Source: a virus
DNA: 64,000 nt
Virus record (IMG/VR): IMGVR_UViG_3300039183_000005
Coordinates: 104,333-168,332 of that record
Direction: 5' to 3' (one strand)
The notes beneath the pieces were generated by a model. The model saw only the letters and a program-made list of their open reading frames with translations, did no database searches and was not told the origin of the DNA. Positions 14,843 to 47,027 of this stretch are shown piece by piece. The translations under genes were made by a program, and so were the position numbers. The stretch's first letter is position 1. Every line of letters begins with the position of its first letter.

Positions 14843-15528
14843 ATTTTAAATCTCTTATTAATGTTTTGTTCCATTCGTGGAGTCCATATTCCGTCAATAA
14901 GCCCTATTTTAATTGCCTGTCTAGGAGACATCCATTCGGTTTCATTCATTAGTTTAGTCAATTGTTTAACTGTTAATTCAGTTCTTCTAGCTAATGATGC
15001 AACTTTTCGACTATAATCTTCTTCTACATGACCTGTCATCTTCGAATGTCTTTCGATTGATTCTGTCTGATTTTGTATAATCACTGAATGCAACATCATC
15101 GATGAATTTGTTGTAGCATAACGACAACCTTTTGTTCCGAATGCTGCTATCATGGCTGCCATTGAATGAGCTTGACCACGAACAATTGTATATATAGGAC
15201 AACTACACGCTAACATTTGATCAATAATAGCATAGCCAGATGCCATACAGCCACCAGGGCTGTGAATATATATATATATTGGTTCTTTTAGTAGCGAAAA
15301 GAGTTGTAAATAATTACAAATATGCGTAGATGTTATTTCATTAATTTCGCCAACAATAGAAAGCCTGCGTGTCCTTACAAGAAATTCTTCAATTATTTCA
15401 TCGACACTAATTGGGATTGATGAATTTGTGTCACTTTCATACTTGTCACAATACTCATGATCATCTTGATTTTTACCTTTATTAAACTTCACTTTTGTCT
15501 CCAAATGGGTGATATTTTTTATGGACAC
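14839..15528 (-). CDS. clpP: ClpP-family protease subunit
   Basis: YIHSPGG; GQAHSMA (Ser); MMLH (His); WMSPRQAIKIGLID. Confidence 0.9.
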   Translation of the reverse strand: MSIKNITHLETKVKFNKGKNQDDHEYCDKYESDTNSSIPISVDEIIEEFLVRTRRLSIVGEINEITSTHICNYLQLFSLLKEPIYIYIHSPGGCMASGYAIIDQMLACSCPIYTIVRGQAHSMAAMIAAFGTKGCRYATTNSSMMLHSVIIQNQTESIERHSKMTGHVEEDYSRKVASLARRTELTVKQLTKLMNETEWMSPRQAIKIGLIDGIWTPRMEQNINKRFKI

Positions 15529-16366
15529 CTATAAGTTTATTACTATCTATTGCAAGATAAGTTTGTGTTGTCGATAAGTATTGATGGCCCAACAGGGCTT
15601 GTATTAGTTCTAAATCTATATTGCGATTCATTAATTCTGTTGCACAACTTCTGCGCAACATATGTGCTGTAGTATGTCTTATGCCAGCCCGACGAGAAAT
15701 AGATACTAACATATCGCTGATAGCGCGACGTGTCATTCGTTGTCCGTTTGATTTTACGAATACCGCAGTGGTTTTTGATTGACGGCCAGAATTTAAATAC
15801 AATTTAATTGCTTCGGCACATCGCCAAGTTGTCGGAACCACCCTATCTCGACCACCCTTACCACGAACACGTATTTCACGTTTATTCAGATTAACGTCTT
15901 TGATATCTAAATTACACAATTCAGATACACGAAGACCACTGTGGTACATAGTTAATATAATAGCGATATCACGGCGAATGTTAGTTGTTCTGCATGTGGA
16001 TAAACGCTTTTCCACAGTGGCCACAAGAATATCCACATCTTTAGAATCCAATGCATTTGGTATTCTCCTGTTTATACGTATTGAGTCTATAGCATCGATG
16101 GTTCGAGAACTTAATAAGCCAAGACTTATGAGATGATGATATAAACATCTTATCGACATGCATTTTCTGCGAATTGTTGTTGGCTTATATCCAAGACTGC
16201 GAAGATGGCCCATAAAAGTTTCCACTAGTTGGGCAGTCAATTTTTGTGTTCCGCTAAAGTCGAGAAATTCTTTGGCATCTTTTGTGTACGCAGATAGCGT
16301 TTCCTGTGTCAAACAAAGTTCAGTACGAATGTATGTTTCAAATCCATCCATAATTGCTGTGGACAT
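15482..16366 (-). CDS. XerC/D-like tyrosine recombinase
   Basis: SGLRVSEL; GKGGRDR; HMLRRSCAT; LLGH..LSTTQTY (full catalytic set). Confidence 0.92.
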   Translation of the reverse strand: MSTAIMDGFETYIRTELCLTQETLSAYTKDAKEFLDFSGTQKLTAQLVETFMGHLRSLGYKPTTIRRKCMSIRCLYHHLISLGLLSSRTIDAIDSIRINRRIPNALDSKDVDILVATVEKRLSTCRTTNIRRDIAIILTMYHSGLRVSELCNLDIKDVNLNKREIRVRGKGGRDRVVPTTWRCAEAIKLYLNSGRQSKTTAVFVKSNGQRMTRRAISDMLVSISRRAGIRHTTAHMLRRSCATELMNRNIDLELIQALLGHQYLSTTQTYLAIDSNKLIGVHKKYHPFGDKSEV

Positions 16367-17274: not shown

Positions 17275-19282
17275 TTATATTTGTTTTTTTTTCTTGGTTT
17301 TATATGCTTTTTGATTTTTAATAGCTTTTTCCAACAAACGAATCATTGGTACTACTTTTCTGTGATCAAGTGCTAAGCCATATTCTTTCGAGCAACTACC
17401 CAATGGACATTTTTTGCATTCTTTGTGTAGATAATGCTGACACAATGCACAGGATTCGTCGTCTATCGTTAAACCATCATCATCATCATATATTTCAAGT
17501 CCGCTAAACTTAACATTATGTTTCTTTCTATTTCGATATAATAGCCCCCTCCATTTTCTAAGAGAATGTTTCAATGCAAATCTTTTTGATACTTCGTACG
17601 CTGGTGTTTTATAAAATTCTTTTTTCCATGAATCTAAACTCATTTACTTATCCTTTCTCAATTCTTTTAACATTTGACGCTTTTCTTCTTCGACTTTGTC
17701 CAAATCTATATTGAAAAACTCTGCCAAAAGTTTTTCTGTATTCAAATACGTTGGACTATATTCCATTTCATCCTCACCATCTATCAACTGACATATGGTC
17801 ATTTCTTTAATATTTTGTAACCATTCCAAAAACTCACCAATTGCTTGAGACTTATCTTTGATAGCCACCATTTTTTCACATTCTGGATATTTGTTTTTCA
17901 TTTTTTTCTCATTAATCCGCTATATATCCACCACAAGTTGCCAAGAACAACTGCCAATTCCTTACCCATTTTATAAATTCTTCTGGTGTGCCACCCCATA
18001 GATGGTTAGCCTTATCCAAAACCTTCATTATTATTTCATCTGTGGTTCCAGCTATTTTGTCGGCTGTTGTCGCCGACATATGTTTATCCATTTGATATGG
18101 TACCCGGTGCCAGCCCTCCAACTTTCCTGTTTCTGGACAGGTAGGTAACCCTAGATGTTCATGAAGTATTCCCAAGAGATCGCATCCGCATACATTTGCA
18201 TCCCAACTACCATCGTCAAATTGAGACGAACAATGTGGTTTATTTTTTAAAATAGAACGATACGTTAAACTCATTTGATTTCCTTTCTAATATTTCGTAT
18301 TGTTGTTCCAATTAAATCTCGTCGTGCTGGTTGATTATCCAAATAATCATCATAACGATCAATTTTTCTTATGAATTCTTTAAGCTTTATTTGTTGAGAA
18401 CATAACACTATAAATCCAAACATATAGTTGTGCGGAACATCATTAGGCAATTTTTTAATTTTCATTATTTCATTTTGCCAACCTTTTATATAATATCCAT
18501 CTGGATACTTGATGTCAACAAAAAAATATCTATCTATATATGGTATTTGGCGATATCTAATTCTAAAATAATATCCATTGATACTTTTTAATATCATAGT
18601 TGGTGGTTTCATTTTTGTTTCCTAAATTCATTCAACAACTGTACTTTTCTTTCAAATTTATTATTTAAAATCCATCGAAATTACGATCGTATTTTTCTAT
18701 TTTATCGAAAAAATCGTATAACTCTTTATACCATTCTACATGAATAAATGATAACAGTTGACATAAGATTGATAAATTGCATTTACTCATATCAATTATA
18801 GATAATTCGTTAATATATCTATTTCCATCATTAATATCTATAATTAAAAGTCTATCCAATTTATTGCGAATTCTATACCTCAATCTAAATCTTCCTCTAA
18901 CCATCGTTGGTGCTCTCATCAAAGTTTAACTCCTTAATTATTTTTCTATTTTCATTTGTTTTAAGTCGATTTGTTCAATATTTGACAACATTGTTTTCAT
19001 CTTATTTATTTCTTTTTTAAGTAAACCGATACAATATCGCCTTGCTAATTCTGGATTTTTATATACAAATTTTTTAGTTTCTGGCGCAGCAAAATCTTGA
19101 TCGTCAGTACCAATCATAATTGTAGTAGTATTTGAATAATATCTTTTTGTAATGCCAACTACCCCACTTAACCTTTCAAACGATCGACAGCGTATTTTAT
19201 ATATTTTGCAACTACCTAACCAATAGCTTACCCAATAATAAACGTTTCCTTTTTTTATTTGATATCCATCTTTGGTTTTCAT
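17275..19282 (-). other. Six small hypothetical genes (17275-17643, 17644-17901, 17912-18274, 18271-18612, 18665-18922, 18938-19282)
   Basis: Contiguous coding-strand ORFs; no family recognised. Confidence 0.6.
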
Positions 19283-20730
19283 TTAATTTGATACTCCAGT
19301 TTAATACCACGAAACTCTCCGGGAGAAATTATCGCCAATTGATCTAATACTCTTTGTCTTAGACTAACGGCAATATCCAAAACAGTTTTCAACTCATTTG
19401 GTTTAATTGTATCAACTCTCCTGTGCGGAAATATTAACTTTAACAATCCCGATCCTATTCGAATAAGTGATCTCTGATCTCTTTGACCCATTTGGCCAAA
19501 ATTAACGTTTTGTAATATTACGTTGGCATAATTACGTTTTCTCATTCTATGCATTACTTCCGATATATAATCAGCCATAAATCCAAAATCTTTTGCAAAA
19601 TTAACTTCCCTAATTGGCCCAATGCGCCATCCAGGAACAAATCCGTGTATCCGATCAAGAAACGCCCTATCTTGACTGACTATTTGAGGAAACGGAGAAA
19701 ATAGATTTCGATATCTTGCGGTAACTTCTCTTTTTTCTCTATTGCAATCAATATTACCAACAAAAGTAATGCTGCAATCAGATGCAAATTCGGCAGTTCC
19801 TCTACCAAACCTACCGCTATTCATAAAATCTTTCAATAAATCTATTAAATCTCCTTGTCCAGACCATTTATTGCCACCACGACTATTGGCAAATTCGTCG
19901 AAAGCAACAACATCTCGGTATCCTATTAATCCCAACCTATTACGAAGTTTATCGTAAAACAAAGAAGCAATGGTAGTTTGAGACCCAGAAATAACAAATC
20001 CGTAAGAGCTTAATGATTGATAGGCAAATGTCTTTCCAGTCATCGTAGGGCCTAGTTCAACCATATTCACATTAGATTCAATAAAAGGAATCATCCTTAC
20101 CATATACAACCATTTTTCTTCTTCAGAAAGATTGGTTGGATCAAACCCGATACTCGTTATCATTAAGTTGAGCCATTCTTCGTCTGAAAATTGTTCTCGA
20201 CGCTTAATCCATATATCCACATTGATATCGGTTATTTGTATTGGTTTAAATTCGGTCAACAAAAACGGATACAGTTTTTTCCTCATAACATAAGATTCGT
20301 CGTATACTATTTTAAAGATACCCCATGCTCCACTTGTTAATAACGTATCTCCGTATTCTACGATGAGGTGTGGATTGATGCGAACATACTGATTCCCTAG
20401 CGCCGTGACATCTACCCAATATTCATCCTTGCCTTCATCAAATCGACAACGGATACGACCAATCAGGGTGTACTCCCCCTGCTCCCTGATTCTGCTCTTA
20501 ACCAATTCCTTTTTGTCAGACTCCATGAAATGCGCATCGAGAAGTTGGCTGATTTTTTCCATGCCAGGAGTGGGGTTTTCAGGGTTGACAGCTTCCGAAA
20601 TCAAATAGTCGACCACGAAACTTGGGAGCTTACGAAATTGTTCGTTAAGACAGCCCAAACTTTTGTCTATTATGATCCCGTGTTCAGGGAAAACCTCAGA
20701 AGCCTTTTGTTTCGCTGTAGTGACTGTCAT
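19279..20730 (-). CDS. BrxL-like MCM-type AAA+ ATPase without a Lon protease domain
   Basis: LPSFVVDYL (BrxL N-domain); NMVELGPTMTGKT; VAFDE; AFLDRIHGFVPGW; ends at 483 aa. Confidence 0.82.
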   Translation of the reverse strand: MTVTTAKQKASEVFPEHGIIIDKSLGCLNEQFRKLPSFVVDYLISEAVNPENPTPGMEKISQLLDAHFMESDKKELVKSRIREQGEYTLIGRIRCRFDEGKDEYWVDVTALGNQYVRINPHLIVEYGDTLLTSGAWGIFKIVYDESYVMRKKLYPFLLTEFKPIQITDINVDIWIKRREQFSDEEWLNLMITSIGFDPTNLSEEEKWLYMVRMIPFIESNVNMVELGPTMTGKTFAYQSLSSYGFVISGSQTTIASLFYDKLRNRLGLIGYRDVVAFDEFANSRGGNKWSGQGDLIDLLKDFMNSGRFGRGTAEFASDCSITFVGNIDCNREKREVTARYRNLFSPFPQIVSQDRAFLDRIHGFVPGWRIGPIREVNFAKDFGFMADYISEVMHRMRKRNYANVILQNVNFGQMGQRDQRSLIRIGSGLLKLIFPHRRVDTIKPNELKTVLDIAVSLRQRVLDQLAIISPGEFRGIKLEYQIK

Positions 20731-24683: not shown

Positions 24684-25021
24684 TATTGTTTCCTTAATTG
24701 TTCTTCTATAAATTGTTCTATTTTTGATTGTTGATCTGGCCACTCTGGATAATCTAATAAAAATCTATTACATTTTACGCACCTACATTCAAACGGTGAT
24801 AGCCAGTTATCAAATTGCTGCCAAACTTCATGCCAATTTATAATTACACCACGCTCATACAATAATGCTTCTATTTTCTTTTGTTGTAATTCCCATGGAG
24901 GATCATATAGGAGTTTTTCCTGTCCACATGATTTGCAAGTAGGTGGACTTTTAGTTATATTATAAGACCAATCTTCAAATTCTTCCCAGAGTCTTTTCCA
25001 GTTTATTTTTTGTTTATCCAT
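24683..25021 (-). CDS. Hypothetical protein made of two tandem ~55-aa CxxC domains
   Basis: INWKRLWEEFEDW..CKSC..PPWELQQKKIE versus INWHEVWQQFDNW..CVKC..PEWPDQQSKIE. Confidence 0.65.
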   Translation of the reverse strand: MDKQKINWKRLWEEFEDWSYNITKSPPTCKSCGQEKLLYDPPWELQQKKIEALLYERGVIINWHEVWQQFDNWLSPFECRCVKCNRFLLDYPEWPDQQSKIEQFIEEQLRKQ

Positions 25022-25227
25022 TATCTTCCTCCAAGTTGACGATTTCTTGTTTCAATGGTCCTTCTTTGTCGATATTCCGGTTTATCTCTTTGTAACGTTT
25101 GTTCACCAAGAGCATGTTCTACTTCGGATATAAAATGGGCACATTCTGTCCCCTGAAATCCTTCTCCATCTATAGAACAATTTCCATTAGCGTCTATGTC
25201 TATTACGATTTGTTTTTGCCCTCGCAT
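25021..25227 (-). CDS. DUF2997 family protein
   Basis: I.I.I..NG....EGFQG.EC....E.ALG.....KPEY. Confidence 0.75.
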   Translation of the reverse strand: MRGQKQIVIDIDANGNCSIDGEGFQGTECAHFISEVEHALGEQTLQRDKPEYRQRRTIETRNRQLGGR

Positions 25228-30207: not shown

Positions 30208-31218
30208 TTACAAAATAACTCGCCTTTTAAGTTCACCAATGAATCCACGACAATCCTGTCCTTCAGCAGCAGCTTTATTGCGAATTGCTTCAAGAGATTT
30301 ACTGATACTATCTTTTACGGTAGCGGATTCAAAGTCTTTTGGTGTGACACCAGAATCCAAAAATGTATTTCGGAAGTCTACCAGCATTTTTTCAATTTCG
30401 CCGTCGCCGAAGATGTTCATAGACCTAAAGCGGTCTACATATTTCCGGAAGCACGAGATTGATTTCGGAGTTAGTTTCTTTGCATCGCTTTCATCTCCAT
30501 ATGGTTTACCGCTTATGCGTGCCGTCATAAGTTTACAAAATCGAATAGTTTCGTTACGCATAGAAGTCACGTACTCGCTTACGAAGTTGCCCACTTCGGT
30601 TTGCATTTGACGACGCAGCTCATTCTCTTTCTCGTCTTGCACTTTTTGTCGAGCAATTACTTCTTCAACACTGGTTTCTTCTATCGATCCTATACCAGCA
30701 ATTTTAAACGTAAACCAATCGAATTGAAATTTTGCCCGCAGGGCTTGTGGATTTGCCGGATAATGACCCCTTAGACACTTGTTCCAAAAATCTGGATGTG
30801 TTTCTCTTACTGTACGAACAAGATCATCGAAACGAGAAATGAAACTATCTACTCGTTCAAAAAATTCTTCTTTTAAATCTTTAATTTGTTGTTCCACTGT
30901 TGGGAGCATTTTTGCTGGAACAAAATGGGAGCTACTGATACCGAATGGCACAGACCACCTTTCCAGTGCTTTTCGAGCACGCTGTTCGATTTGGGTTAAA
31001 TGTTGTAATTCAGATTTTGGCACCATTAATTTGCGACCAAGATTGCATATTTCTTCTGGAAGTTTGTCTGGGTCGTATCCTATCTTTACTAAATCTGCGC
31101 GAGTAATCATTTTTCGCGCGCTCCACATACGAACTCTAAGGTTCACCAGTAATCCAACATCAAATAAGTTTATGGCATCTTGCTTTGTGTCTTTGTTTTC
31201 GGTTACAATTGTACTCAT
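30208..31218 (-). CDS. DUF3150-like helical protein
   Basis: LV.L.V..WSARK; LGRKL; PF....FVP; YP....LR.KF.F.W. Confidence 0.65.
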   Translation of the reverse strand: MSTIVTENKDTKQDAINLFDVGLLVNLRVRMWSARKMITRADLVKIGYDPDKLPEEICNLGRKLMVPKSELQHLTQIEQRARKALERWSVPFGISSSHFVPAKMLPTVEQQIKDLKEEFFERVDSFISRFDDLVRTVRETHPDFWNKCLRGHYPANPQALRAKFQFDWFTFKIAGIGSIEETSVEEVIARQKVQDEKENELRRQMQTEVGNFVSEYVTSMRNETIRFCKLMTARISGKPYGDESDAKKLTPKSISCFRKYVDRFRSMNIFGDGEIEKMLVDFRNTFLDSGVTPKDFESATVKDSISKSLEAIRNKAAAEGQDCRGFIGELKRRVIL

Positions 31219-31235: not shown

Positions 31236-32795
31236 TTAATTTAAACTGATTTTTCTTTCACCAATTTTTGGCGGTGCAGTTTTTGGTGGTGGATTGGCAG
31301 GCTTAGCGTGATTAGCGCACCATTGTCTAATGTTTGCTACGCGACTAGCTTCTGTTTTTGATAAAGGTATAATTTCCGGAACAGCTTGTTTTAAGTGATA
31401 GGTTTTAAGTTGTTCCTTTTTCGAAAACGCCATTTTTAGACCAAGCTTAACAACTTGCTCAATATCGGCGCCAGTAAAGCCATCGGTTGATTTTGCCAAC
31501 ATATTAATGTCGAAATCATTTGGATCACGATTTCTTTTAATTAAATGTATAGTGAATATTTCTATACGCTCTTTTTCTGCTGGAAGATCAAGGCCATATA
31601 TTTCGTCGAATCGGCCTTTTCTGGAAAGTTCTGGAGGAAGTGATTGAATTTGGTTTGCAGTAGCGATTATGTATACCGAGGACTGTCTATCGTTTAACCA
31701 TTTTATAAATGATCCGAATAATCTGCGAGATGCCCCGCCATCAAAGTCGCCAGAGCCACCGAAACCTTTTTCTATTTCGTCTAAAACCAATTCGCATGGA
31801 GATACGCTTTCTATCATTTTAATAGCCTCTCGCATATTTCGTTCCGATTCTCCAACGAACTTGTTCATAAGATTGCCGACATCCATTGCAATAATTGGCA
31901 ACCCTAGTTCAGATGCAATAGCGGAAGATAATAGAGTTTTTCCGCATCCCTGCAATCCGACAAGCATAAGACCCCGTGGGAATTCAATGCCGAAATCCCT
32001 AGCTTCTTTTGAAAAACATGGACGATCTAACAAAACATGCTGTTTAATTGCGTCATAACCACCAACCAAAGATAGTCCGCCACTGGGCGGTTCAATATAG
32101 GTTAATAACCCAGATGCCCGAATTACTCCAGCCTTTTCACGAATAATAGTTTTGATTGCATCACCATTTAAGTCTTTATGTTTTCTTAATGCCAATGCTA
32201 CTCTATCGACAATTTGTTGAGAGGTCATACCCCTACATGCGTCTACAATTTTTGGGATAATGGTTTTGCTTGGTTCAAATTTAGTTCCATCAGATTTTGT
32301 TACTTCGCTACATACAAAATCGATTCGTTCATTAATTTGTTCATTATTTGGTAATGCGAAATCCATTTGAGTTATGTCGTGAGATAGTGATTTCGGGATA
32401 TCAAAATTAGGTCCGACCATAACTATTGTTTGTTGCACAGAAGCTACAATTTTTCGAAGTTCGTCTAGCCAGCCAATTACTACGTCGTATCGTGGATATG
32501 TTACGTGTTGAAAATATTCACCACAATCACGTAGGATGCAGATTGTTTTTTCTGGAAAATCTACTATGGCTTGTATATGATCTTCTACCGGGGCGGCTGG
32601 TACTACTTCGCAAACTTTGTTGCCATTTTCGTCGATCCATCCCTGCGCAATAGACCAAATATATACTTTACGATCTATCTTTTTCGCTACTTTCGCAATT
32701 TCGCTGATGGCACGATCTTTTTCGAAAGTGTCGACATGTAACAAGGCATGACCAGAACAACAGTAATCGGCAAAATCCTCACCAAAATTATTCAT
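31236..32795 (-). CDS. Ycf46-like AAA+ ATPase (degenerate N-terminal module, active C-terminal module)
   Basis: PRGLMLVGLQGCGKT; VGESE; LDEIEKG; RKGRFDE; GFTGADIEQ. Confidence 0.88.
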   Translation of the reverse strand: MNNFGEDFADYCCSGHALLHVDTFEKDRAISEIAKVAKKIDRKVYIWSIAQGWIDENGNKVCEVVPAAPVEDHIQAIVDFPEKTICILRDCGEYFQHVTYPRYDVVIGWLDELRKIVASVQQTIVMVGPNFDIPKSLSHDITQMDFALPNNEQINERIDFVCSEVTKSDGTKFEPSKTIIPKIVDACRGMTSQQIVDRVALALRKHKDLNGDAIKTIIREKAGVIRASGLLTYIEPPSGGLSLVGGYDAIKQHVLLDRPCFSKEARDFGIEFPRGLMLVGLQGCGKTLLSSAIASELGLPIIAMDVGNLMNKFVGESERNMREAIKMIESVSPCELVLDEIEKGFGGSGDFDGGASRRLFGSFIKWLNDRQSSVYIIATANQIQSLPPELSRKGRFDEIYGLDLPAEKERIEIFTIHLIKRNRDPNDFDINMLAKSTDGFTGADIEQVVKLGLKMAFSKKEQLKTYHLKQAVPEIIPLSKTEASRVANIRQWCANHAKPANPPPKTAPPKIGERKISLN

Positions 32796-34147: not shown

Positions 34148-34909
34148 TTATTTTCCTTGTTTTTTATCTCGTTCCATACATGAAAAACAGTCCATTCCTA
34201 AATCCAGTTGTTCTGCCCTCCATTTCCAGACGTGTTTTCTTGCGTCGTAGTAGTCAATTTCGCCGAAGTGTTTCCACGGGAAATATCCCATAGGGCACAA
34301 TGTTATCATACCTGTTTCTATTACCATCAATTGCCCTGTTTCTTTGCAACACCCACAGCAAACTTCGAATTCACGACTTGATAGGTGATTATCCCATGCT
34401 CTTCCAAGCGGCAATAGCTTATTATCTGGAATATTTACTCCATAAATCAATTTAGCTTTTGGACTGTGTTCGCGATATAGTCGTTGTGCTCGTTTGCTGA
34501 ATTTCTGGTGCCATTTATCATCGGATATTGCCACAAGAACTTCGTCGCAGATTTCACAAACAGAATCTATTGATAATAGGAACTTATTCGTAGCCATTTT
34601 GTCGTAGGCCCATTGACCGTTTGTAACTATAGATGCTTTATGTCTACCAGATGTCAGAGCTATGAGAATTTCTGGATAGTCTGGAAGTATCGTGAACTCT
34701 CCACCCATTATGTTTATTCTTATGTTTTTCGGCAACCATGTGTTTAATAATTCGCAGTCTCGGATAGATAACTGACCTATACATTCAGGGCCAGACCTGA
34801 AACAACAATGAGAACACCGTTCGTTACACTGGTTTGTCACCCTAGCCACAAATTCATTGGTCCATGAATTATTGCTCCACTTACTAAACCAGTGATTATA
34901 CTTTGGCAT
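34148..34909 (-). CDS. Radical SAM protein with a twitch/SPASM-like C-terminus
   Basis: CNERCSHC (CX3CX2C); MGGE; TNG; GRA; C-terminal G...LCP. Confidence 0.85.
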   Translation of the reverse strand: MPKYNHWFSKWSNNSWTNEFVARVTNQCNERCSHCCFRSGPECIGQLSIRDCELLNTWLPKNIRINIMGGEFTILPDYPEILIALTSGRHKASIVTNGQWAYDKMATNKFLLSIDSVCEICDEVLVAISDDKWHQKFSKRAQRLYREHSPKAKLIYGVNIPDNKLLPLGRAWDNHLSSREFEVCCGCCKETGQLMVIETGMITLCPMGYFPWKHFGEIDYYDARKHVWKWRAEQLDLGMDCFSCMERDKKQGK

Positions 34910-35678
34910 GAATTTTTTCTCTCGACAACCTGATAGATTGATCATGCTCCATGCATGAGCAGCAAGTCATCCCTCTTGTAAGTTGTTCTGATCGCCAATT
35001 TAATACATATTCCTTAGCTTCATACCATGAAGTCTCTGTGAAATGTTTCCACGGAAAATAACCAAACGGACACTTACACACCATTCCGTCTTCTGATATG
35101 AACATATTACCCATTGTGTTACATCTTGCCCATTTTTGTGGATCGGGGACAATATTATTATCCCACGCTCTTCCAACCGGAACAATCTCCGATACAGGAA
35201 GATTACCAGGATCAACTAATGTGACTTTTGGACAATTATTCTGCATAATTTCAAATGCTTTTGGCCACGTATGTTTGTGCCATTTGTCCGTTGATATAGC
35301 GACATCAACTTCTTTACATATTTCTGTAAGAGAGTTAATGGTTTTTATGAAATTTTTTCTGATTGTGAATATGCGAAACCATTGTCCATTTGTAACAATG
35401 CGGATATGATTTCTGTTTTTTGCCAGTACGTAAAGAATTTCTGGATAATTATGCAATATAGTTATTTCACCACCCATTATATTCGGACTAACATCATGCG
35501 GTATCTATCTATTAATATCGATACAATCATTAGTAGATATGTGGCCAACACATTTTGGGCCAGACCGGAAAGCACAGTGAATACACTTTTGATTGCATCT
35601 GTTTGTAACTCTTACTACACAGGCATTTATTGTTGTATTTGTTGTCCATATTTTTGGATATTTTTTATTGCTACTCAT
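34896..35678 (-). pseudogene. Paralogous radical SAM gene with an in-frame TAG at 35505-35507
   Basis: From ATG 35678: ..VTNRCNQKCIHCAFRSGP..DCIDINR*IPHDVSPNIMGGE... The stop aligns with Trp in the paralog (LNTWLP). Confidence 0.8.
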
Positions 35679-36238: not shown

Positions 36239-36892
36239 TCATTTGGTCCCCATTTCATTGGTCAGCAAATTTACATCGATTTCTTTATCTATTTCGCATC
36301 CACGAAGCCACTTGGCGAATTGTGCTACTCTTATGCCAGCCGATACGTTTGCGCAATAAATTGTTGTTTTTGCAGTACATGACCCAGAATAAGTTTCTCT
36401 CTGTGGGAATAGCGTTGTGTTATAGTGCTCTTTAGATTCTTCGTCGTGTGCGACGAAGATTCTCATATATTCTGCACTCATTCTTCCATCGATAAATAAG
36501 TCAGCTCGATTTTTGACTGCGTTAAAAATAGATTTTCGTGTTTCAATACTGTCTACACAACAAAATAACACACCTCCGGTAAACTGGATTGACATGAATT
36601 TTTTATTTGCAGTGTTTATTTCTATCGCCGGATTAATCATGCGACAAACATCTGCCGTTGCGTCAACTTTAGCACGACCCAAATCTGCTTCGAAATATCC
36701 TTGTGCTGCCAGATTTTCTACTTTTACTATATCAAAATCAATTAATTGAATTTTGGGCACACCAATTGCCGCTAGTTGCAGTGCAACCTGACGGCCACCA
36801 GCGCCAACTCCCACCACAGTCACTTTTGTGTCTTGCAATTTTTCTGGTGGAATTAGTTCTCTCTGACGGATGTCTCTATTTTCAATATTCAC
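36239..36892 (-). CDS. ThiF/E1-like Ubl-activating enzyme
   Basis: VVGVGAGG; IDFDIV...NL..Q; K; CVDSIETR; FIDGRM; candidate catalytic Cys in GSCT. Confidence 0.9.
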   Translation of the reverse strand: MNIENRDIRQRELIPPEKLQDTKVTVVGVGAGGRQVALQLAAIGVPKIQLIDFDIVKVENLAAQGYFEADLGRAKVDATADVCRMINPAIEINTANKKFMSIQFTGGVLFCCVDSIETRKSIFNAVKNRADLFIDGRMSAEYMRIFVAHDEESKEHYNTTLFPQRETYSGSCTAKTTIYCANVSAGIRVAQFAKWLRGCEIDKEIDVNLLTNEMGTK

Positions 36893-36924
36893 GCTTATTC
36901 CTCCATCATTGCCAAATCGCGTTC

Positions 36925-37836
36925 TTATAGATTTTCTTCAGCCCAAGCAACCACCATATTCGACCATTTTTGGATTGGTTTGTTTATCGCAACAATATCA
37001 TTTCGATTTTCACCAAAAGCATCTTCAGAAAACCATCTTTTTTCTATTGGATCATAAAAATACCACAAGGCATCATTATATTCAAAAAATGCAGCATAGC
37101 CGTTATCATCCCAATGGCAATCAAAGTCTAATTCTTCCACCCGATTAAGTTCATCCTGTTGCCGAGCCAACTGTTCGTACTTTTTATTCCACCATAGCGG
37201 GTCATCATCAGGTTTGTCGTCTTGTACCAGACAGGAACGAGTAATTCCACCTTCTTTTCCTGTCATGCAGAATTTCTCAATCTGTACTTTATCTTTATAT
37301 TCATTATTCCAGGCTTCAATGTTTGAACCATTAAATGGAACATTCCAATCTACTGCAATTTTTAGTTCTTTTACCACTCCCGGTCCAACGTTAATCTTCA
37401 ATCTACAGTAGATTTCTCCACCTCTTGCAATGATGAACATTATGGCCCAATATGGATGGGAAAACGCTTTTCGGAAATTTTCTTCATCGGTTCCGCTAGG
37501 TTGAGGACAATTTCCTGGATGGGAATGTAGTAAAATATTTTGACATGTCCAGGGCGGCATTCCAATATCCATCATTCGTTCTGCGTAATCCGCCATATCT
37601 TCTGAGTCAAAATCGAATGAAGCTCCAGTACATTTTTGTTTTATCAAAATGAAATCTGTAACTAAAAGTGGGTCTTCAGTTCCGGTTACTCCATAACCAG
37701 CTACTTCAGTTGGCCCTTTATCTCTCATATAAATTAATTTTGCAAAACTGTATGGAGTAAATCGCAATGTATCTCCAAAAGTCATTTTTGGCGTCGTGAA
37801 TTTTTTACTCATACTCCTATTCCTTCTAATAGACAA
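36925..37836 (-). CDS. JAB/JAMM (MPN+) metallopeptidase
   Basis: TEVAG (Glu) plus HSHPGNCPQPSGTD = HxH-x7-S-x2-D. Confidence 0.88.
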   Translation of the reverse strand: MSIRRNRSMSKKFTTPKMTFGDTLRFTPYSFAKLIYMRDKGPTEVAGYGVTGTEDPLLVTDFILIKQKCTGASFDFDSEDMADYAERMMDIGMPPWTCQNILLHSHPGNCPQPSGTDEENFRKAFSHPYWAIMFIIARGGEIYCRLKINVGPGVVKELKIAVDWNVPFNGSNIEAWNNEYKDKVQIEKFCMTGKEGGITRSCLVQDDKPDDDPLWWNKKYEQLARQQDELNRVEELDFDCHWDDNGYAAFFEYNDALWYFYDPIEKRWFSEDAFGENRNDIVAINKPIQKWSNMVVAWAEENL

Positions 37837-39059
37837 CCATGTTCTTCAAGACAGGATGAACACATTGGAACTCCACAGTGTTCACATGTTGTTTGACAAT
37901 CTTCGCAAATACTCTTTTGACAACTATGACATTCATCAAGACACTCTTTGCAGCAATTCTCTTCACAAAGACCGCATGTAATCATACATTTTTCACATAT
38001 AGGTTTATTGCAACAAGAACACGCCGATATACATGGATTGCAGAAATATTCCTGACAAATAGTGCATTGGCTTAGACACGACGAACAGTAATTTTTTTCG
38101 CATTCGGTACACATACTTGCACAGTTGTTGCAAAGTGCCTCTCCGCATTCATTACATTGTGTACCACATTCACTACACATCCATTGGTCACACACACAAC
38201 ACGCATCACCATTTTCTGCACAATTTTCACAGTAGTTACAGTCACACATTGCACAATAGTACCCACATTCATCTGGACACCATTCCCTACAATTTTCACA
38301 ACAGAACTCCCCTTCGTGGTCTGGTTCATACCATTTTTCTAATTTGTCATACGGTGAATCATCATTATATGTTCGTAGAATAGATTCTACAACTCTAAAA
38401 CAATCTTCGAGTCTACCCTGGCATATGGCATTTGTTATAGCTTCTTCTCCTTTCCCTTGACATAAAGATTCATCTCCAATGTGTGGATGATAATATCCTC
38501 CTAATGATTGTATTTCATTTACTGACTCTATAGTTATGTTATACGGATTCGTTAGATCAATGTGTACCCAAAAGTGCCCAAGGTCTACTTCTTCATTTTC
38601 ATCTTCGAGCACAACATCCTCGATAAGTACCGATAGTTTGTTGTCGCGAAATTTAACATTTTTCCAGGCGTTGCTAATTATTCTAATTTCTTCTGTTATT
38701 TCTTTTAGCGACAATGGTGTTACTAGACCTTTTTCTGTCATGATTTTAATTATTGCCATTGCTTGGCGTGTCATTTCTATAACACTATCTCCAATGTTTG
38801 GAATCATGGTTGTCGCAATATTTTCGTATACACTTGGATTTACAATTCCCAGATGTCGGACTGATGGTTCCCATTCATTAACTTGGACACGCGGACTTGT
38901 TCCAGCAATAAATCTATCGTACCATCGTTTTATTTCTTCCAATTTGATAGCAGCATTTGTTATTGCATTACTTGCGCTCATATTGAGATTAACAGATTGT
39001 TGTTCCACCATCCATTTGTGATATTTGATAGCAGCTCTGCGTATTAGTTTTTCATTCAC
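37809..39059 (-). CDS. Prokaryotic E2-like protein fused to about 10 Cys-rich repeats
   Basis: LGHFWV.I; HPHIGDESLC (E2 active-site-like); ILRTYN..SPY; C-terminal (CxxC-x4-CxxC-x3) repeats. Confidence 0.72.
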   Translation of the reverse strand: MNEKLIRRAAIKYHKWMVEQQSVNLNMSASNAITNAAIKLEEIKRWYDRFIAGTSPRVQVNEWEPSVRHLGIVNPSVYENIATTMIPNIGDSVIEMTRQAMAIIKIMTEKGLVTPLSLKEITEEIRIISNAWKNVKFRDNKLSVLIEDVVLEDENEEVDLGHFWVHIDLTNPYNITIESVNEIQSLGGYYHPHIGDESLCQGKGEEAITNAICQGRLEDCFRVVESILRTYNDDSPYDKLEKWYEPDHEGEFCCENCREWCPDECGYYCAMCDCNYCENCAENGDACCVCDQWMCSECGTQCNECGEALCNNCASMCTECEKNYCSSCLSQCTICQEYFCNPCISACSCCNKPICEKCMITCGLCEENCCKECLDECHSCQKSICEDCQTTCEHCGVPMCSSCLEEHGCLLEGIGV

Positions 39060-39471
39060 AGTAAATTTTTCCTATATTTAAAACCGATTATTTTGCCAAA
39101 TTAACAAATTTAGTATTCCGACTAAAATTCGACGAAAAATTTACCATTTGATTCTCGCCATATAATACACTTATTGTTTACGTCATATTCCTACGGTAAG
39201 GCTAACTAGCCTTACTTTTGGTCAAGTCAGGTGGATTGTTTTATTCATCTGATCTTGCTAGACATTCAGCCAGTCCTCCGACATAATCTTCTAGGTGAAG
39301 TAACACTTCACTATATCCAAATGCGTGACCTTTTTCCCAAGCCATATACGATAGCCAGCCACGAAATTTTTTGGGAATTCGATTTAGAAGTTCGGTTTGC
39401 TTGGCCTCGAACTCTTCTTCAGTTATTCTGCTCATTGTGTTTGCCTATAATTTGATACGTGATTATTAACC

Positions 39472-39505
39472 AAAAGGGGGTGGGGGAACGTATCTCCCCC
39501 ACCCC
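39472..39505 (-). terminator. Intrinsic terminator after the Ubl gene
   Basis: Minus strand 11-bp stem GGGGTGGGGGA/TCCCCCACCCC followed by CTTTT. Confidence 0.75.
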
Positions 39506-39540
39506 GTGTGGTATTAATACCGATGACCTTACACCATCTA

Positions 39541-40017
39541 TTACGAACGCTTCGTCAGCTTACTCCGAACCAACTCGGCATCTTCTTTACTAAGACCGCT
39601 AAGCAACTTGGAAACAGTCTTCGGAAGCTTATCCCTAGACATTTGTACTCTCTTTAATTTATATGCGAGAGTAAGTACATTTGGATCGGTATCGGCGGCA
39701 AGTCGCTCAGCGATAGTTACATTATCAGTGCTCATTTTGGTCCTCAGAGAAGCTATCTGCTCCTCATTTGTTCCTGGACCTTTACCCGCGTCGCCCTCGA
39801 TCTTTTTCGGCGCCAGACTTACCCTGTCACCGTCTTGAAGGACATAATCCAGATGAGCTTCGACAGTCATGCCATTTGCACGAACTCGGATTGTGAAATC
39901 ATCCAAATCGCGACCGAAAGAAACCTCAAGAAATTTTTCCAACGTCGTTCCATTGACAACGGGAATCTTGCGCGGAATACCAGAACCGTCATTTGTTACC
40001 AACATTACCTCGATCAT
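39541..40017 (-). CDS. Ubiquitin-like (beta-grasp) protein precursor with an 83-aa C-terminal extension
   Basis: V.LV...G..GTTL..FL...IRV.N....YVLQDGDRVSLAPKKIEG(75), then a helical basic tail; lies upstream of E2-JAB-E1. Confidence 0.8.
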   Translation of the reverse strand: MIEVMLVTNDGSGIPRKIPVVNGTTLEKFLEVSFGRDLDDFTIRVRANGMTVEAHLDYVLQDGDRVSLAPKKIEGDAGKGPGTNEEQIASLRTKMSTDNVTIAERLAADTDPNVLTLAYKLKRVQMSRDKLPKTVSKLLSGLSKEDAELVRSKLTKRS

Positions 40018-40982: not shown

Positions 40983-41522
40983 TTACACGTTTGATTTGCA
41001 GTGGCATATATCCGCAACCAGAACCTCTCTCTCACGCTGTTGACCATGTTCATCCACTTCTGATGAAGAACAATAATCCGGATAAACAGCATCGGTAACC
41101 ACATCAACTTCAACTAGATCACTTGTTTCAAATAATCCAGCTACGGTATCGGAAACACATTCATTTCCGTAGAGGACACATACCAAAAGATCAAGCGACC
41201 AGGTTTGGTGTTTTTCAATACATTTAATTATTTCTGGGCCACCATCTCCAATAGATTTGGATACAGTTTCCTTATGCGTATACCCACTCAGAGCTTCAAC
41301 AATTGAAGCATTTGTCTCGCCGCAAGCAGTGAATTCAACAACTATAACAGGCCATTCATTTTGTTTGGCATGTTGTATCAATTTACAAATTGCAGGAACT
41401 ATACATTTTTCATTTCCCTGCATAAAGATGGGTTGCATGTCAATAATAACAAGTGTTCTGTCTGGCGAGTATTCGTTAAGTCGTTGGTAGGCAGAATGTC
41501 TGGCTCTTTCAATAATGTTCAC
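40983..41522 (-). CDS. Isochorismatase/cysteine-hydrolase-like protein
   Basis: LVIIDMQ..F; K; CV..T..GL; V.VV.DA. Confidence 0.7.
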   Translation of the reverse strand: MNIIERARHSAYQRLNEYSPDRTLVIIDMQPIFMQGNEKCIVPAICKLIQHAKQNEWPVIVVEFTACGETNASIVEALSGYTHKETVSKSIGDGGPEIIKCIEKHQTWSLDLLVCVLYGNECVSDTVAGLFETSDLVEVDVVTDAVYPDYCSSSEVDEHGQQREREVLVADICHCKSNV

Positions 41523-41561: not shown

Positions 41562-41969
41562 TTATACCGGCCAACAATATGGTAAGTAATCCGGTTCTGT
41601 CCAGCCAAATTGTCCGTACCAATTTGGATTTTTACGAAGAAGATTCGACCTATGAGAGGCGTGGAACGCCTCATCGCCAAGCCACTTGGGATAAGTCATT
41701 TCATACACATCTAATGGATGAATAAACATGGTATTCTTATATCCACGTTTTATCCATTCTTTAATACACGTATTCATGTAATAGGCTATTGGTCCTGGAT
41801 ATCCCATCCACATTTTGACTGCTGGATGATGCCTCCATTTGCTGTCTGGCTTTATTCCAGCTACTATTCGGAAAATTTGTAAGGCTTCTACTCTCTGCTT
41901 TCCAAGGCGGCGCCAGTCTAAGCATTGTATGCTTTTTTCAATGTTGGAATATGGTAGAAATGTTTGCAT
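41562..41969 (-). CDS. Pyrimidine-dimer DNA glycosylase-like protein (MSMEG_6728 family)
   Basis: MQTFLPY...LD.RRLGKQRVEA.QI..HHPAVKMW.GY..W..RGY..WLG...HASHRSNLLRK. Confidence 0.85.
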   Translation of the reverse strand: MQTFLPYSNIEKSIQCLDWRRLGKQRVEALQIFRIVAGIKPDSKWRHHPAVKMWMGYPGPIAYYMNTCIKEWIKRGYKNTMFIHPLDVYEMTYPKWLGDEAFHASHRSNLLRKNPNWYGQFGWTEPDYLPYCWPV

Positions 41970-45138: not shown

Positions 45139-46953
45139 AATTTTTTCCTTACTTTAAAAAGACTCAGGAAAATTAATAGAATCATCATCCTCTTCATCGT
45201 AATCATCTTCGTTGTCGTCGCATTCACTACAATTACATGCGCTGCCATAATTCTGGCCTATTTCCTGATCATCAATGGATGATCTTTCCCACGTAAGACT
45301 GCCAGTAGCGGTTTCTATCATCACCTTGTGAATTATTTTGTTTCTCATTAATTCCATCATCAAATGTAATGTTTGTCCCTTTGATTCTGTCTCAATACGT
45401 TCCGTGCCATTTTTTTGTACGAATTCATTTGCGCCAAAATTCGTACTATTTTTGTTCCAGATGGTTAGTGTGTACATTATTTTTCCCACCTCCGTCTATG
45501 TAGTTCTACTCGCAATGTTCCATCATATTCGTGTGTAATAGCTACGATACTGAGTGTTCTTCCAGATTTGGAAGATATTTGGTCACCAACTATTGGCCGA
45601 CAACATACCATAGTGGGCCACGCTTCTCTTTGATAATCATCTAGGTTTGTAAAACAAATTACTTTCATATTAACAATCTCCGAACATTTTTCCAATGAAA
45701 TGGGCACCCGCTATCGGTGAACCCCTCATCCGTTCATATGCGTGCCACAAATCTGCTAAATTGAATGATTTTTGTTGCCATTTTTCCAAGGCAAAATTCC
45801 AGAATACTTGTCTATTTGTCATCTCAACCCCCACCAGGCTAATCGGGAAACGGGAACGGAAGATTAATAAATTGTATGCCGTATTCCAGAATAGGACAAT
45901 TTTGTGCTTGACGATCCGCTTCCACCAAAGCTTCTGTTCTCTTATACATGACATCGCAGTCACCAAAATATTTAATCAATTCTTCGCTGTTGAAGCCTTC
46001 GCAATCTGGTCTATAAGTTATATTGTCTATTGCCATTGCGTGAGTAACGCGAAATTCAAATTCTCCGGGAATATCTTTGTGAACGGGAGATTTCAGAATG
46101 TAAATACCGTTGTCAGCACTCATGTTTCTTCTCCAAATACATACAGGCCAAACTGCAATTACGTCAAACATTGTTTTGCAGTGTTTTGGGAAAACTTGAT
46201 TGTTCAAAAATCAATTAACTCAAAAATTTTTAATATAATAGCGGTAGACAAAAATGCAGATAACCAAAATGTTTGTGTAAAATTCCATGGGTTATCTTTG
46301 TCCATATTTTTATTATGCTGTCTACTTCTGGTTTTTCCATTGCGTACTGTTCCCTATTTGCCTCTGTGTTATTGGCGTATTTATTAGGTGGCTGTTGTGT
46401 TCGCATTTTGTTCCTGCGATTATTGCTGCGATTAAAAATAATATACCTATAACAAAATATTTCATATTAGCGAAGCCTTGCCTTTTTTCATCAAGGATTG
46501 CTAAACATATTGAACACCCGATGGCAAACATCCATGCTAGACAAATCCAAATCCAGTTGTTGGAATTCATTTTTTGCATTCCTCGTCGAAAACCCACCCT
46601 AATCGACAAATTGTGACTTAACGCCACTCCCGTTGTATACGTTTACAACACTCATCATCGACTACCAAGAACCAAACAATTACTAGAGTCGTTAGTTCAA
46701 AGGTTTTAGGTTAGCATCAATTGATGGTTTCTATTCCGTTATGATGGTAATAACACCTTTTTCTTTATTACAAGGATCGATATCACACTCTATATCTTCA
46801 AAAAAACATATACCACAACTCGGACAATCCACTTCAATTTCTAAATTGTCGGAATGGTCCTTGGTAATTCTTCTGAATTCGCCCAATGTCATTTTGTTTC
46901 TCCTAAAAGATAGTTTGACAAGTGATGATATTTATCATTCTATCCATTCACAG

Positions 46954-47027
46954 TGGGCCTGGCAGGACTCGAACCTGCGACCTTGTGTTTATAAGACACA
47001 TGCTCGTACCAACTGAGCTACAGGCCC
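46954..47027 (-). tRNA. tRNA-Ile, anticodon UAU (CCA not encoded)
   Basis: GGGCCTG TA GCTC AGTTGGTAC GAGC A TGTGT CTTATAA ACACA AGGTC GCAGG TTCGAGT CCTGC CAGGCCC A forms a full cloverleaf; anticodon TAT at 46991-46993. Confidence 0.92.

Follow-up and report, generated by a model that had tools for sequence, protein, structure and literature searches.

Can a bacteriophage possess a protein-tagging pathway of its own? Conjugation of ubiquitin-like proteins (Ubls) in bacteria, as mediated by CBASS Cap2/Cap3, Bil, and Bub, has so far been known as a weapon against phages. The question is raised by an operon of an uncultured phage, the genome of which is IMG/VR record IMGVR_UViG_3300039183_000005, a single contig of 168,332 base pairs (bp). 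The window analyzed here comprises the final 64 kilobases (kb) of the contig (64,000 nucleotides, positions 104,333 to 168,332 of the record), and the coordinates of phage features are positions in this window. From the letters of the sequence, an original prediction had placed four co-oriented genes at 36239-40017, encoding a β-grasp Ubl, an E2-like protein, a JAB peptidase of the JAMM type, and a ThiF-type E1, and had proposed that they constitute an apparently complete conjugation pathway owned by the virus. The four genes are located there, on the minus strand, and their order of transcription is Ubl-E2-JAB-E1. We assign a probability of about 0.7 to the reading that they encode an active, cysteine-dependent Ubl conjugation cascade owned by mobile elements, in which the E2 has its own substrate-binding zinc array.

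The first 226 bases of the contig are repeated at its end, and the contig is therefore circular or terminally redundant. The terminal overlap, together with a terminase large subunit and a DNA polymerase, identifies the contig as viral rather than cellular and the genome as complete.

The E2-like protein has a predicted UBC fold

The second protein of the operon carries the motif HPHIGDESLC (residues 191-200), with which it had been singled out as E2-like. In 85 diverse homologues, which have 28-68% identity to the phage core, residues H191, P192, C200, G202, A211, and Y231 are invariant, whereas H193, G215, R216, D219, T230, and N232 are nearly invariant. No more than 11 close relatives were recovered in a word-based search, all of which keep the pattern GY-x-HPH-x5-LC-x-G-x-G and QGRLED, followed by a long cysteine array. 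However, a profile of the 250 N-terminal residues, scored against 1.84 billion representatives, matched 1,794 clusters at E ≤ 1e-3, of which 814 reach E ≤ 1e-10. Most clusters of the family contain proteins of 330-370 amino acids (aa), in which the cysteine array is shorter but the core is the same. The family is thus large (about 1,800 clusters), and it is without a model in Pfam, NCBIfam, or PADLOC. The phage protein has no family match in these three libraries or in PHROGs; ten members of the family compared with Pfam gave no match except for one sub-threshold match to PLU-1, and members compared with NCBIfam (three) and PADLOC (two) gave none.

The AlphaFold model of the full-length E2 provided only weak hints of an E2, and the fold search was dominated by matches to the N-terminal helical hairpin. 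The core (residues 112-250) was therefore refolded alone. The resulting model, based on an alignment of 85 rows, has a predicted local distance difference test score (pLDDT) of 93.1 and a predicted template modelling (TM) score of 0.86. It consists of a helix, a four-stranded meander, a loop with the HPH motif and the cysteine, and two helices. A Foldseek search of the PDB with the core returned almost only E2 enzymes, with E values of 0.02-0.4, a probability of up to 0.96, and TM scores of about 0.45-0.55. The core was also compared with 48,161 PDB representatives using VIA-align, and the best 50 rows were viewed. The first 16 matches are all E2 enzymes, with 114-121 of the 139 residues aligned and Z values of 7.0-8.2, which are middling by the tool's own calibration. 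The best of them is UBE2S (Z 8.2, root-mean-square deviation 3.4 Å, 117 residues). Among the matches listed, nearly all of the remaining ones have UBC, UEV, RWD, or FANCL folds, and BubB of the Bub system (9eav_D) has a Z value of 5.5. In agreement with the original prediction, the core is predicted to have a UBC fold; the assignment combines three features, namely a list of matches nearly free of other folds, alignments that extend over the whole domain, and the invariant His-Pro-His...Cys motif.

The C-terminal part of the E2 contains 49 cysteines, among them 19 CxxC motifs at an alternating spacing of seven and eight residues. Phage copies of the protein have 15-22 CxxC motifs, whereas cellular copies mostly have 10. 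The array is modelled as repeated β-hairpins with block-mean pLDDT values of about 79-93 up to residue 410, and it has a weak likeness to LIM, FYVE, and PHD fingers. The tail is predicted to form a rod of tandem zinc fingers with room for about ten zinc sites.

In the BFVD database of viral structures, the best matches of the E2 core are proteins of 370-540 aa from uncultured marine and crAss-like phages (probability 1.0, E 7e-5 to 1e-2), which rank above the E2 enzymes of giant viruses. Other lineages of phages may therefore carry UBC-like domains.

Tag precursor, peptidase, and activating enzyme

The Ubl was originally described as a β-grasp protein. It has the motif LQDGDRVSLAPKKIEG, which terminates at Gly75, and the end of its β-grasp part reads KKIEG75. 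A profile match to the structure of MoaD (E 0.11) covers the region "...VN..V....L..GD.V.L.P", and cellular homologues carry the NCBI name "MoaD/ThiS family protein". Gly75 is invariant in 29 of 29 sequences, in which the end of the β-grasp part has the consensus P-x-K-[IV]-[ED]-G. These sequence features are those of a putative β-grasp tag with a C-terminal glycine. The residues that follow the glycine vary: cellular copies mostly have one to three, the first of which is alanine; two phage relatives have AVSL or ALA; and this phage and two further relatives have a tail of 82-85 residues. An invariant glycine followed by variable tails is the pattern of a precursor that is trimmed by its own peptidase, as in Bil and Bub, for the tags of which such trimming has been shown (PMC10557695, PMC11601596). 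Residues 76-158 of the phage Ubl are presumably cleaved off.

The stop codon of the Ubl gene is directly followed by a terminator-like hairpin. A hairpin with a U run or U-rich stretch is present at the same site in all four relatives for which DNA is available, and thus in five of five phage-type loci, with a different sequence in each. Its conservation suggests attenuation, by which transcripts of the tag would exceed those of the enzymes. An open reading frame (ORF) of 64 codons lies between the Ubl and E2 genes, and two relatives have a gene for 63-73 aa at this position; it is uncertain whether the ORF belongs to the tagging system.

The JAB peptidase scores 23.9 bits with the Pfam Prok-JAB model, just below the cut-off of 25 bits, and has an E value of 4e-4 with the JAB model of PADLOC. 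Its JAMM site, E...HxH-x7-S-x2-D, is intact as claimed: E44, H104, S114, and D117 are present in 55 of 55 homologues and H106 in 54, the exception being an X. Phage copies of the peptidase have a Trp-rich C-terminal extension (about residues 190-303), which is absent from cellular copies.

The nucleotide-binding motif GxGxxG and the free cysteine of the sequence GSCT, both reported for the E1 at the outset, are found in all 55 homologues as G28-x-G30-x-x-G33-R34 and C172; D52, D54, N60, Q64, D114, D135, and R137 are likewise invariant. We take C172 to correspond to the crossover-loop cysteine of MoeB and ThiF. The best relatives of the E1 in the PDB are MoeB (5e-10), followed by PaaA, Uba7, ThiF, and Uba5, with BubCD further down. 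The E1 consists of the adenylation domain alone, without zinc-binding CxxC pairs, an inserted cysteine domain, or a ubiquitin-fold domain. Its homologues are about 217-250 aa in length.

The operon is conserved in related phages and in Planctomycetota

Related phage-like contigs from metagenomes have the same gene order in the four cases with available DNA, and the gene tables of three more are consistent with it. The shared order includes the isochorismatase gene, the genes Ubl-E2-JAB-E1, the radical SAM gene, and, further on, the AAA ATPase gene. Loci in genomes and in IMG/VR were found using a 75-letter degenerate DNA motif covering the segment D219...W243 of the E2. The motif matched at least 120 stretches of a species-level genome collection, and 80 loci were examined, of which 77 are from Planctomycetota. 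All 80 are true matches with the order Ubl-E2-JAB-E1; 50 are complete, and most of the others are cut by the ends of contigs or loci. In IMG/VR, nine contigs (31-181 kb) were matched, and in nine of nine the operon is present as far as the retrieved sequence extends. Complete loci have all four ORFs intact without exception. The recurrence of the gene order across phage relatives, IMG/VR contigs, and genomes indicates that the arrangement is not a product of chance. The DNA of the operon has no match in 50,697 GenBank phage records, and a tblastn search of the same records with the N-terminal half of the E2 found no homologue. Searches for related loci with single proteins gave nothing with P0084 among genome contigs or with A2 among viral contigs.

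In an unrooted tree of E1 and JAB, the phage sequences form a monophyletic clade with a support of 100 and a long branch, which is nested in neither of the two cellular clades. We rejected the possibility that the phage recently acquired the operon from one of the planctomycetes sampled, because the phage copies are a long-branched lineage of their own; as the tree is unrooted, neither a donor nor a direction of transfer is derived from it. The claim that the virus owns the pathway holds in so far as the phage carries it; however, the pathway is not exclusive to viruses, as recombinase-bearing cassettes of Planctomycetota share it. The kit is equipment of mobile elements, namely of phages and of cassettes with a serine recombinase. 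The phage probably infects a planctomycete, and the near-restriction of the operon to Planctomycetota provides a clue to the host for a clade of uncultured phages with genomes of 160-180 kb.

Variants of the operon were observed in a few loci. In two related phage contigs (L002, 3779-4537; L004, 4610-5368), a gene for a Cys-rich, HNH-like protein of 252 aa is located on the opposite strand between the E2 and JAB genes and looks like an insertion of the homing-endonuclease type inside the operon. A planctomycete-like metagenome contig (L006, 4960-7038) has two tandem E2-like paralogues of 333 and 345 aa before JAB and E1, and the Ubl gene is absent directly upstream of them.

Genes that travel with the operon

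Recurring upstream genes on the same strand define at least two types of cassette in cellular genomes. Seven 20-kb contexts were compared. In the most complete of them, a large serine recombinase is followed by a protein of 190 aa, a DUF1257-like protein, and proteins of 65 aa and of 225-259 aa; next come the AAA ATPase, the DUF3150-like protein, and a protein of 100 aa, and after these Ubl-E2-JAB-E1. One 10-Mb genome contains seven copies of the cassette, which have 4.6-13.4 kb in common at 86-99.9% DNA identity, and tag and DUF3150 proteins with more than 90% identity are present in several genera of Pirellulaceae. In a Pfam census of 133 ORFs flanking the cellular homologues, tyrosine integrases, IS66 transposases, and group II intron maturases lead, with occasional Cas and methylase genes; the 25 commonest families listed include no sulfur or cofactor genes.

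The AAA+ ATPase of the phage is homologous to the AAA gene of the cassettes (hidden Markov model (HMM) E 1e-65), which is positioned two to three genes upstream of the Ubl gene. Among solved structures, its best relatives are the D2 rings of p97/Cdc48 (PDB p97/VCP, E 8e-57). The gene adjoining the ATPase gene in the phage encodes a DUF3150 protein, which scores 79.5 bits against a Pfam cut-off of 24.9 bits and matches the HMM of the cellular cassette gene c2 with an E value of 1e-11; Atlas agrees with this assignment. Judged by homology, the AAA+ ATPase and the DUF3150 protein are probable partners of the tagging genes, and an ORF of 68 codons with similarity to the 65-aa cassette gene (Table 1) is a possible further one. 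The HMMs of cassette genes c1, c3, c4, and c7, of the 122-aa DUF1257-like protein, and of the 225-aa protein found no homologue in the phage. The pathway had been called apparently complete; its four genes are present, but they are probably not the whole system, because the ATPase and the DUF3150 protein travel with them. The AAA family is represented in 91 cultured phage genomes, and an E2 homologue is missing from all 50,697 phage records searched. Tagging genes and ATPase are thus associated in two unrelated genomic backgrounds, but their linkage is not a rule. This repeated linkage of a Cdc48-like ATPase bears on the question of how tagging and unfolding machines came together.

Proposed mechanism and alternative explanations

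We infer the chemistry of the following scheme throughout from features of sequence and fold. The tag would be made as a precursor, probably in excess over the enzymes given the terminator hairpin after its gene. The JAMM peptidase would cut after Gly75, producing a β-grasp protein with a C-terminal glycine and an 83-residue tail. The E1 would adenylate Gly75 using ATP and take the tag onto Cys172, from which it would move to Cys200 of the E2 with its predicted UBC fold. The C-terminal rod of the E2, with about ten putative zinc sites, may function as a built-in substrate adaptor or E3 that directs the transfer to lysines of the target. The JAMM peptidase could also remove the tag. Tagged proteins are the probable substrates of the Cdc48-like ATPase and the DUF3150 protein, unless these two have a regulatory role in the system. 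The cascade would be distinguished by an E2 family that is nameless in the libraries searched, by an E1 reduced to its adenylation domain, and by a zinc-finger array of the E2 at the place where an E3 is expected. If active, it would provide a very small and tractable model of transfer from E1 to E2 to substrate, with an E1 of 217 residues and no separate E3, and the benefit of protein tagging to a phage could be studied with it.

Several observations weigh against an active cascade. The Ubl matches the families of its proposed fold weakly (Pfam ThiS, E 0.017; MoaD model TIGR01687, E 0.009). The E2 has no sequence link to known E2s, as sequence and profile searches of Pfam, NCBIfam, PADLOC, and the PDB were blank, and its assignment is based on a predicted structure with a Z value of at most 8.2 and a Foldseek E value of 0.02 or weaker. 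Its motif is the variant HPH rather than HPN, and C200 is a putative catalytic cysteine placed by the motif HPH-x6-C. The E1 is without any element by which known E1s recruit an E2. Furthermore, trios of ThiS/MoaD, E1, and JAB also work as sulfur carriers, and tandem radical-SAM-like paralogues (34148-35678) are located directly 3' of the E1 gene, an arrangement also found in phage relatives.

If the genes encoded a sulfur carrier, the E1 would adenylate the Ubl, which would be converted to a thiocarboxylate and would donate sulfur, perhaps to the radical SAM neighbours. The JAB peptidase would only trim the precursor or an adduct, in the manner of CysO/Mec and QbsE/QbsD. The proximity in sequence of the Ubl and E1 to MoaD/ThiS and ThiF/MoeB agrees with this possibility, as does the radical SAM gene immediately after E1 here and in phage relative L002, in which it is likewise split. 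However, radical SAM genes are not among the recurring gene clusters beside the cellular cassettes. A protein with a predicted UBC fold and the motif HPH..C is always positioned between Ubl and JAB, and a sulfur carrier has no use for one; in addition, the tag ends in one glycine, not in GG. Genes for thiamine and molybdenum cofactor synthesis, the absence of which had been noted originally, were found neither among the scanned window genes nor among the 133 cellular flanking ORFs, and the same is true of rhodanese, cysteine desulfurase, ThiG/ThiH, and MoaE. Because the E2 is ever-present and the partner genes are missing, a sulfur carrier is very unlikely, with the radical SAM genes retaining low-level support for it. 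It is even less probable that the operon is a non-catalytic or decayed remnant, in which the E2-like domain is a binding module of the UEV or RWD type and no conjugation takes place. Numerous proteins of the UBC superfamily are inactive, the structural matches include RWD and UEV folds, and sequence similarity to active E2s is missing; however, the cysteine and the His-Pro pair are invariant in 85 E2 sequences that are as little as 28% and at most 68% identical to the phage core, the catalytic residues of E1 and JAB are invariant, and none of the complete loci has a disrupted ORF.

An active cascade could act on host or phage proteins during infection, perhaps passing them on to the AAA motor, or it could serve the exclusion of competitors in the manner of Bil. 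In the latter case the biochemistry would be the same, and the genes would be defence cargo with which a prophage or a cassette tags proteins of competing phages and blocks their assembly. We regard this as possible but unlikely. It is in line with the role in defence of Bil, Bub, and CBASS Cap2/Cap3 (PMC10557695, PMC11601596) and with the tyrosine integrase of the phage, which may therefore be temperate. The flanks of the cellular operons are rich in integrases and transposases and include the occasional Cas and methylase genes. Directly beyond the E1 gene of the cassette in Allorhodopirellula solitaria CA85 (L141, 12869-19934), there are an IS66 transposase, an OLD/AbiEii-like ATPase (AAA_15/AAA_21), and a type I restriction R subunit, a neighbourhood that resembles a defence island in this one genome. 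By contrast, the operon of the phage is not a separately oriented moron but is embedded in a minus-strand block of more than 40 kb, co-directional with genes for replication and nucleotide metabolism. The synteny of the operon is kept across a clade of large phages and the phage copies form one deep, long-branched lineage, which suggests long vertical retention rather than recent acquisition as cargo. Nor do the models of PADLOC recognize the E2 or the Ubl.

The targets named in the original prediction, which are host defence proteins, proteins of rival phages, and proteins of the phage itself, are speculation. One version of the active cascade is a machine that tags and extracts: the minimal cascade, the zinc-finger adaptor of the E2, the Cdc48-like unfoldase, and the DUF3150 protein would together dismantle chosen host proteins, for example defence complexes, during infection or establishment. 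This version is doubtful; if true, the eukaryotic ubiquitin-Cdc48 axis would have a viral parallel in the prokaryotic world, and a Ubl conjugation system would for the first time be at the service of a phage instead of being directed against it.

Comparison with known systems

The original prediction likened the operon to Bil and to CBASS Cap2/Cap3. The likeness is one of presumed function and does not extend to membership. BilABCD systems of types I and II similarly encode their Ubl, Cys-type E2, JAMM peptidase, and E1 in four separate genes (PMC10557695; bioRxiv 10.1101/2023.09.04.556158); they are carried on mobile DNA, and their peptidase is expected to expose the C-terminal glycine of the tag. 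However, the 217-residue E1 of the phage, with its single adenylation domain, does not have the architecture of a Bil E1, the phage E2 matches no named prokaryotic E2 family in sequence and bears a C-terminal array of 19 CxxC motifs, and the CEHH protein was not seen here. Moreover, Bil is directed against phages, and the genes described here belong to one. PADLOC has no match for the E2 or Ubl, and it matches the E1 only with generic E1-E2 models and the JAB peptidase only with generic JAB models.

Bub (6E/DUF6527) resembles the phage operon in having a diverged set of E1, E2, and Ubl, a JAB domain, and a pre-protein tag that needs cleavage (PMC11601596), and BubB and BubCD are among the matches of the E2 core and the E1, respectively. 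Bub proceeds through Tyr and Ser oxyesters without catalytic cysteines (PMC11601596), whereas C172 of the E1 and C200 of the E2 are invariant here, and the operon proteins have no match to the DUF6527/BubE protease. Cap2/Cap3 of type II CBASS is characterized by a fusion protein of E1 and E2 that acts on a CD-NTase; in the phage, E1 and E2 are separate genes, no CD-NTase was found among the scanned neighbouring genes, and the match to the Cap3 model (E 0.008) has 16 bits against a cut-off of 200 bits. Membership in Bil, Bub, or Cap2/Cap3 was rejected on the grounds of E1 architecture, PADLOC blanks, the invariant cysteines, and the separate genes, and the kit would only work like these systems. 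PRTRC membership was also rejected, since TIGR03736, which concerns the ThiF component only, matches with 32 bits against a cut-off of 144.75 bits.

The nearest sequence relatives of the Ubl and E1 are found in ThiS-ThiF and MoaD-MoeB, and also in CysO/MoeZ/Mec, which have the adenylation motif and, by our assignment of C172, a crossover-loop cysteine in common with the phage E1. The phage operon differs from them in the constant presence of the E2, in an E1 without zinc-binding CxxC pairs, and in a tag end with a single glycine and a tail. The matches of the E1 to ThiF/MoeB models of NCBIfam are far under the cut-offs, for example 77.6 versus 159 bits. As in the eukaryotic ubiquitin-Cdc48/p97 system, the Ubl cascade is found alongside an AAA ATPase related to the D2 ring of p97/Cdc48; the ATPase of the phage has one AAA domain in addition to an unassigned N-terminal region, and its link to the tag is a genomic association alone. 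A phage β-grasp protein with a C-terminal glycine and a further domain, between which a JAB protein is predicted to cut, has been described from the tail assembly of the lambda type (TAPI/TAPK; PMC1779556). However, the lambda proteins are encoded in the tail module without an E1 or E2, whereas the genes described here are positioned among replication genes and include a full set for activation and transfer. No description of a phage-encoded E1/E2/JAB system, of its planctomycete counterpart, or of DUF3150 was found in the literature covered, which does not include Burroughs et al. 2011.

Genomic setting of the operon

Besides the terminase large subunit and DNA polymerase, the whole contig codes for an NAD ligase, DnaB, a UvsX-like recombinase, ribonucleotide reductase, thymidylate synthase, and a tyrosine integrase. 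The features of the window that are discussed in the text are listed in Table 1.

Table 1 Operon genes, candidate partners, and neighbouring features in the window.
Feature	Position	Strand	Length (aa)	Remarks
Ubl precursor	39541-40017	minus	158	residues 1-75 ThiS/MoaD-like β-grasp (predicted); 76-158 tail
Terminator-like hairpin	39477-39505	minus		12-bp stem with 9 G-C pairs, then T-rich tract; directly after Ubl stop codon
ORF between Ubl and E2	39241-39435	minus	64	weak phrog_10980 match, E 4e-4
E2-like protein	37809-39059	minus	416	residues 1-111 helical hairpin; 112-250 UBC-like core; 251-416 CxxC array (predicted)
JAB/JAMM metallopeptidase	36925-37836	minus	303	Pfam Prok-JAB, E 4e-5
ThiF/MoeB-type E1	36239-36892	minus	217	Pfam ThiF, E 1.4e-26, residues 17-202
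Radical SAM, second paralogue, split	35505-35678 + 34896-35477	minus		CxxxCxxC
Radical SAM, intact paralogue	34148-34945	minus		Pfam Radical_SAM, E 1e-7; CxxxCxxC
AAA+ ATPase (probable partner)	31236-32795	minus	519	Pfam AAA, E 2e-27, and AAA_lid_3
DUF3150 protein (probable partner)	30208-31218	minus	336	adjoins AAA gene; Pfam E 3e-22
68-aa ORF (possible partner)	25021-25227	minus	68	matches 65-aa cassette gene; phmmer down to 1e-6, HMM E 2e-9
Tyrosine integrase	15482-16366	minus		phrog_1, E 3.5e-37; among replication genes
Isochorismatase family	40983-41522	minus		upstream of operon; position kept in six relatives
Pyrimidine-dimer DNA glycosylase	41562-41969	minus		upstream of operon

A 483-aa protein encoded at 19279-20730 on the minus strand has only a weak match to a PHROG annotated as protease (phrog_6542, E 5e-9). 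The sole tRNA gene of the window, for tRNA-Ile with the anticodon TAT, is located at 46953-47027 on the minus strand.

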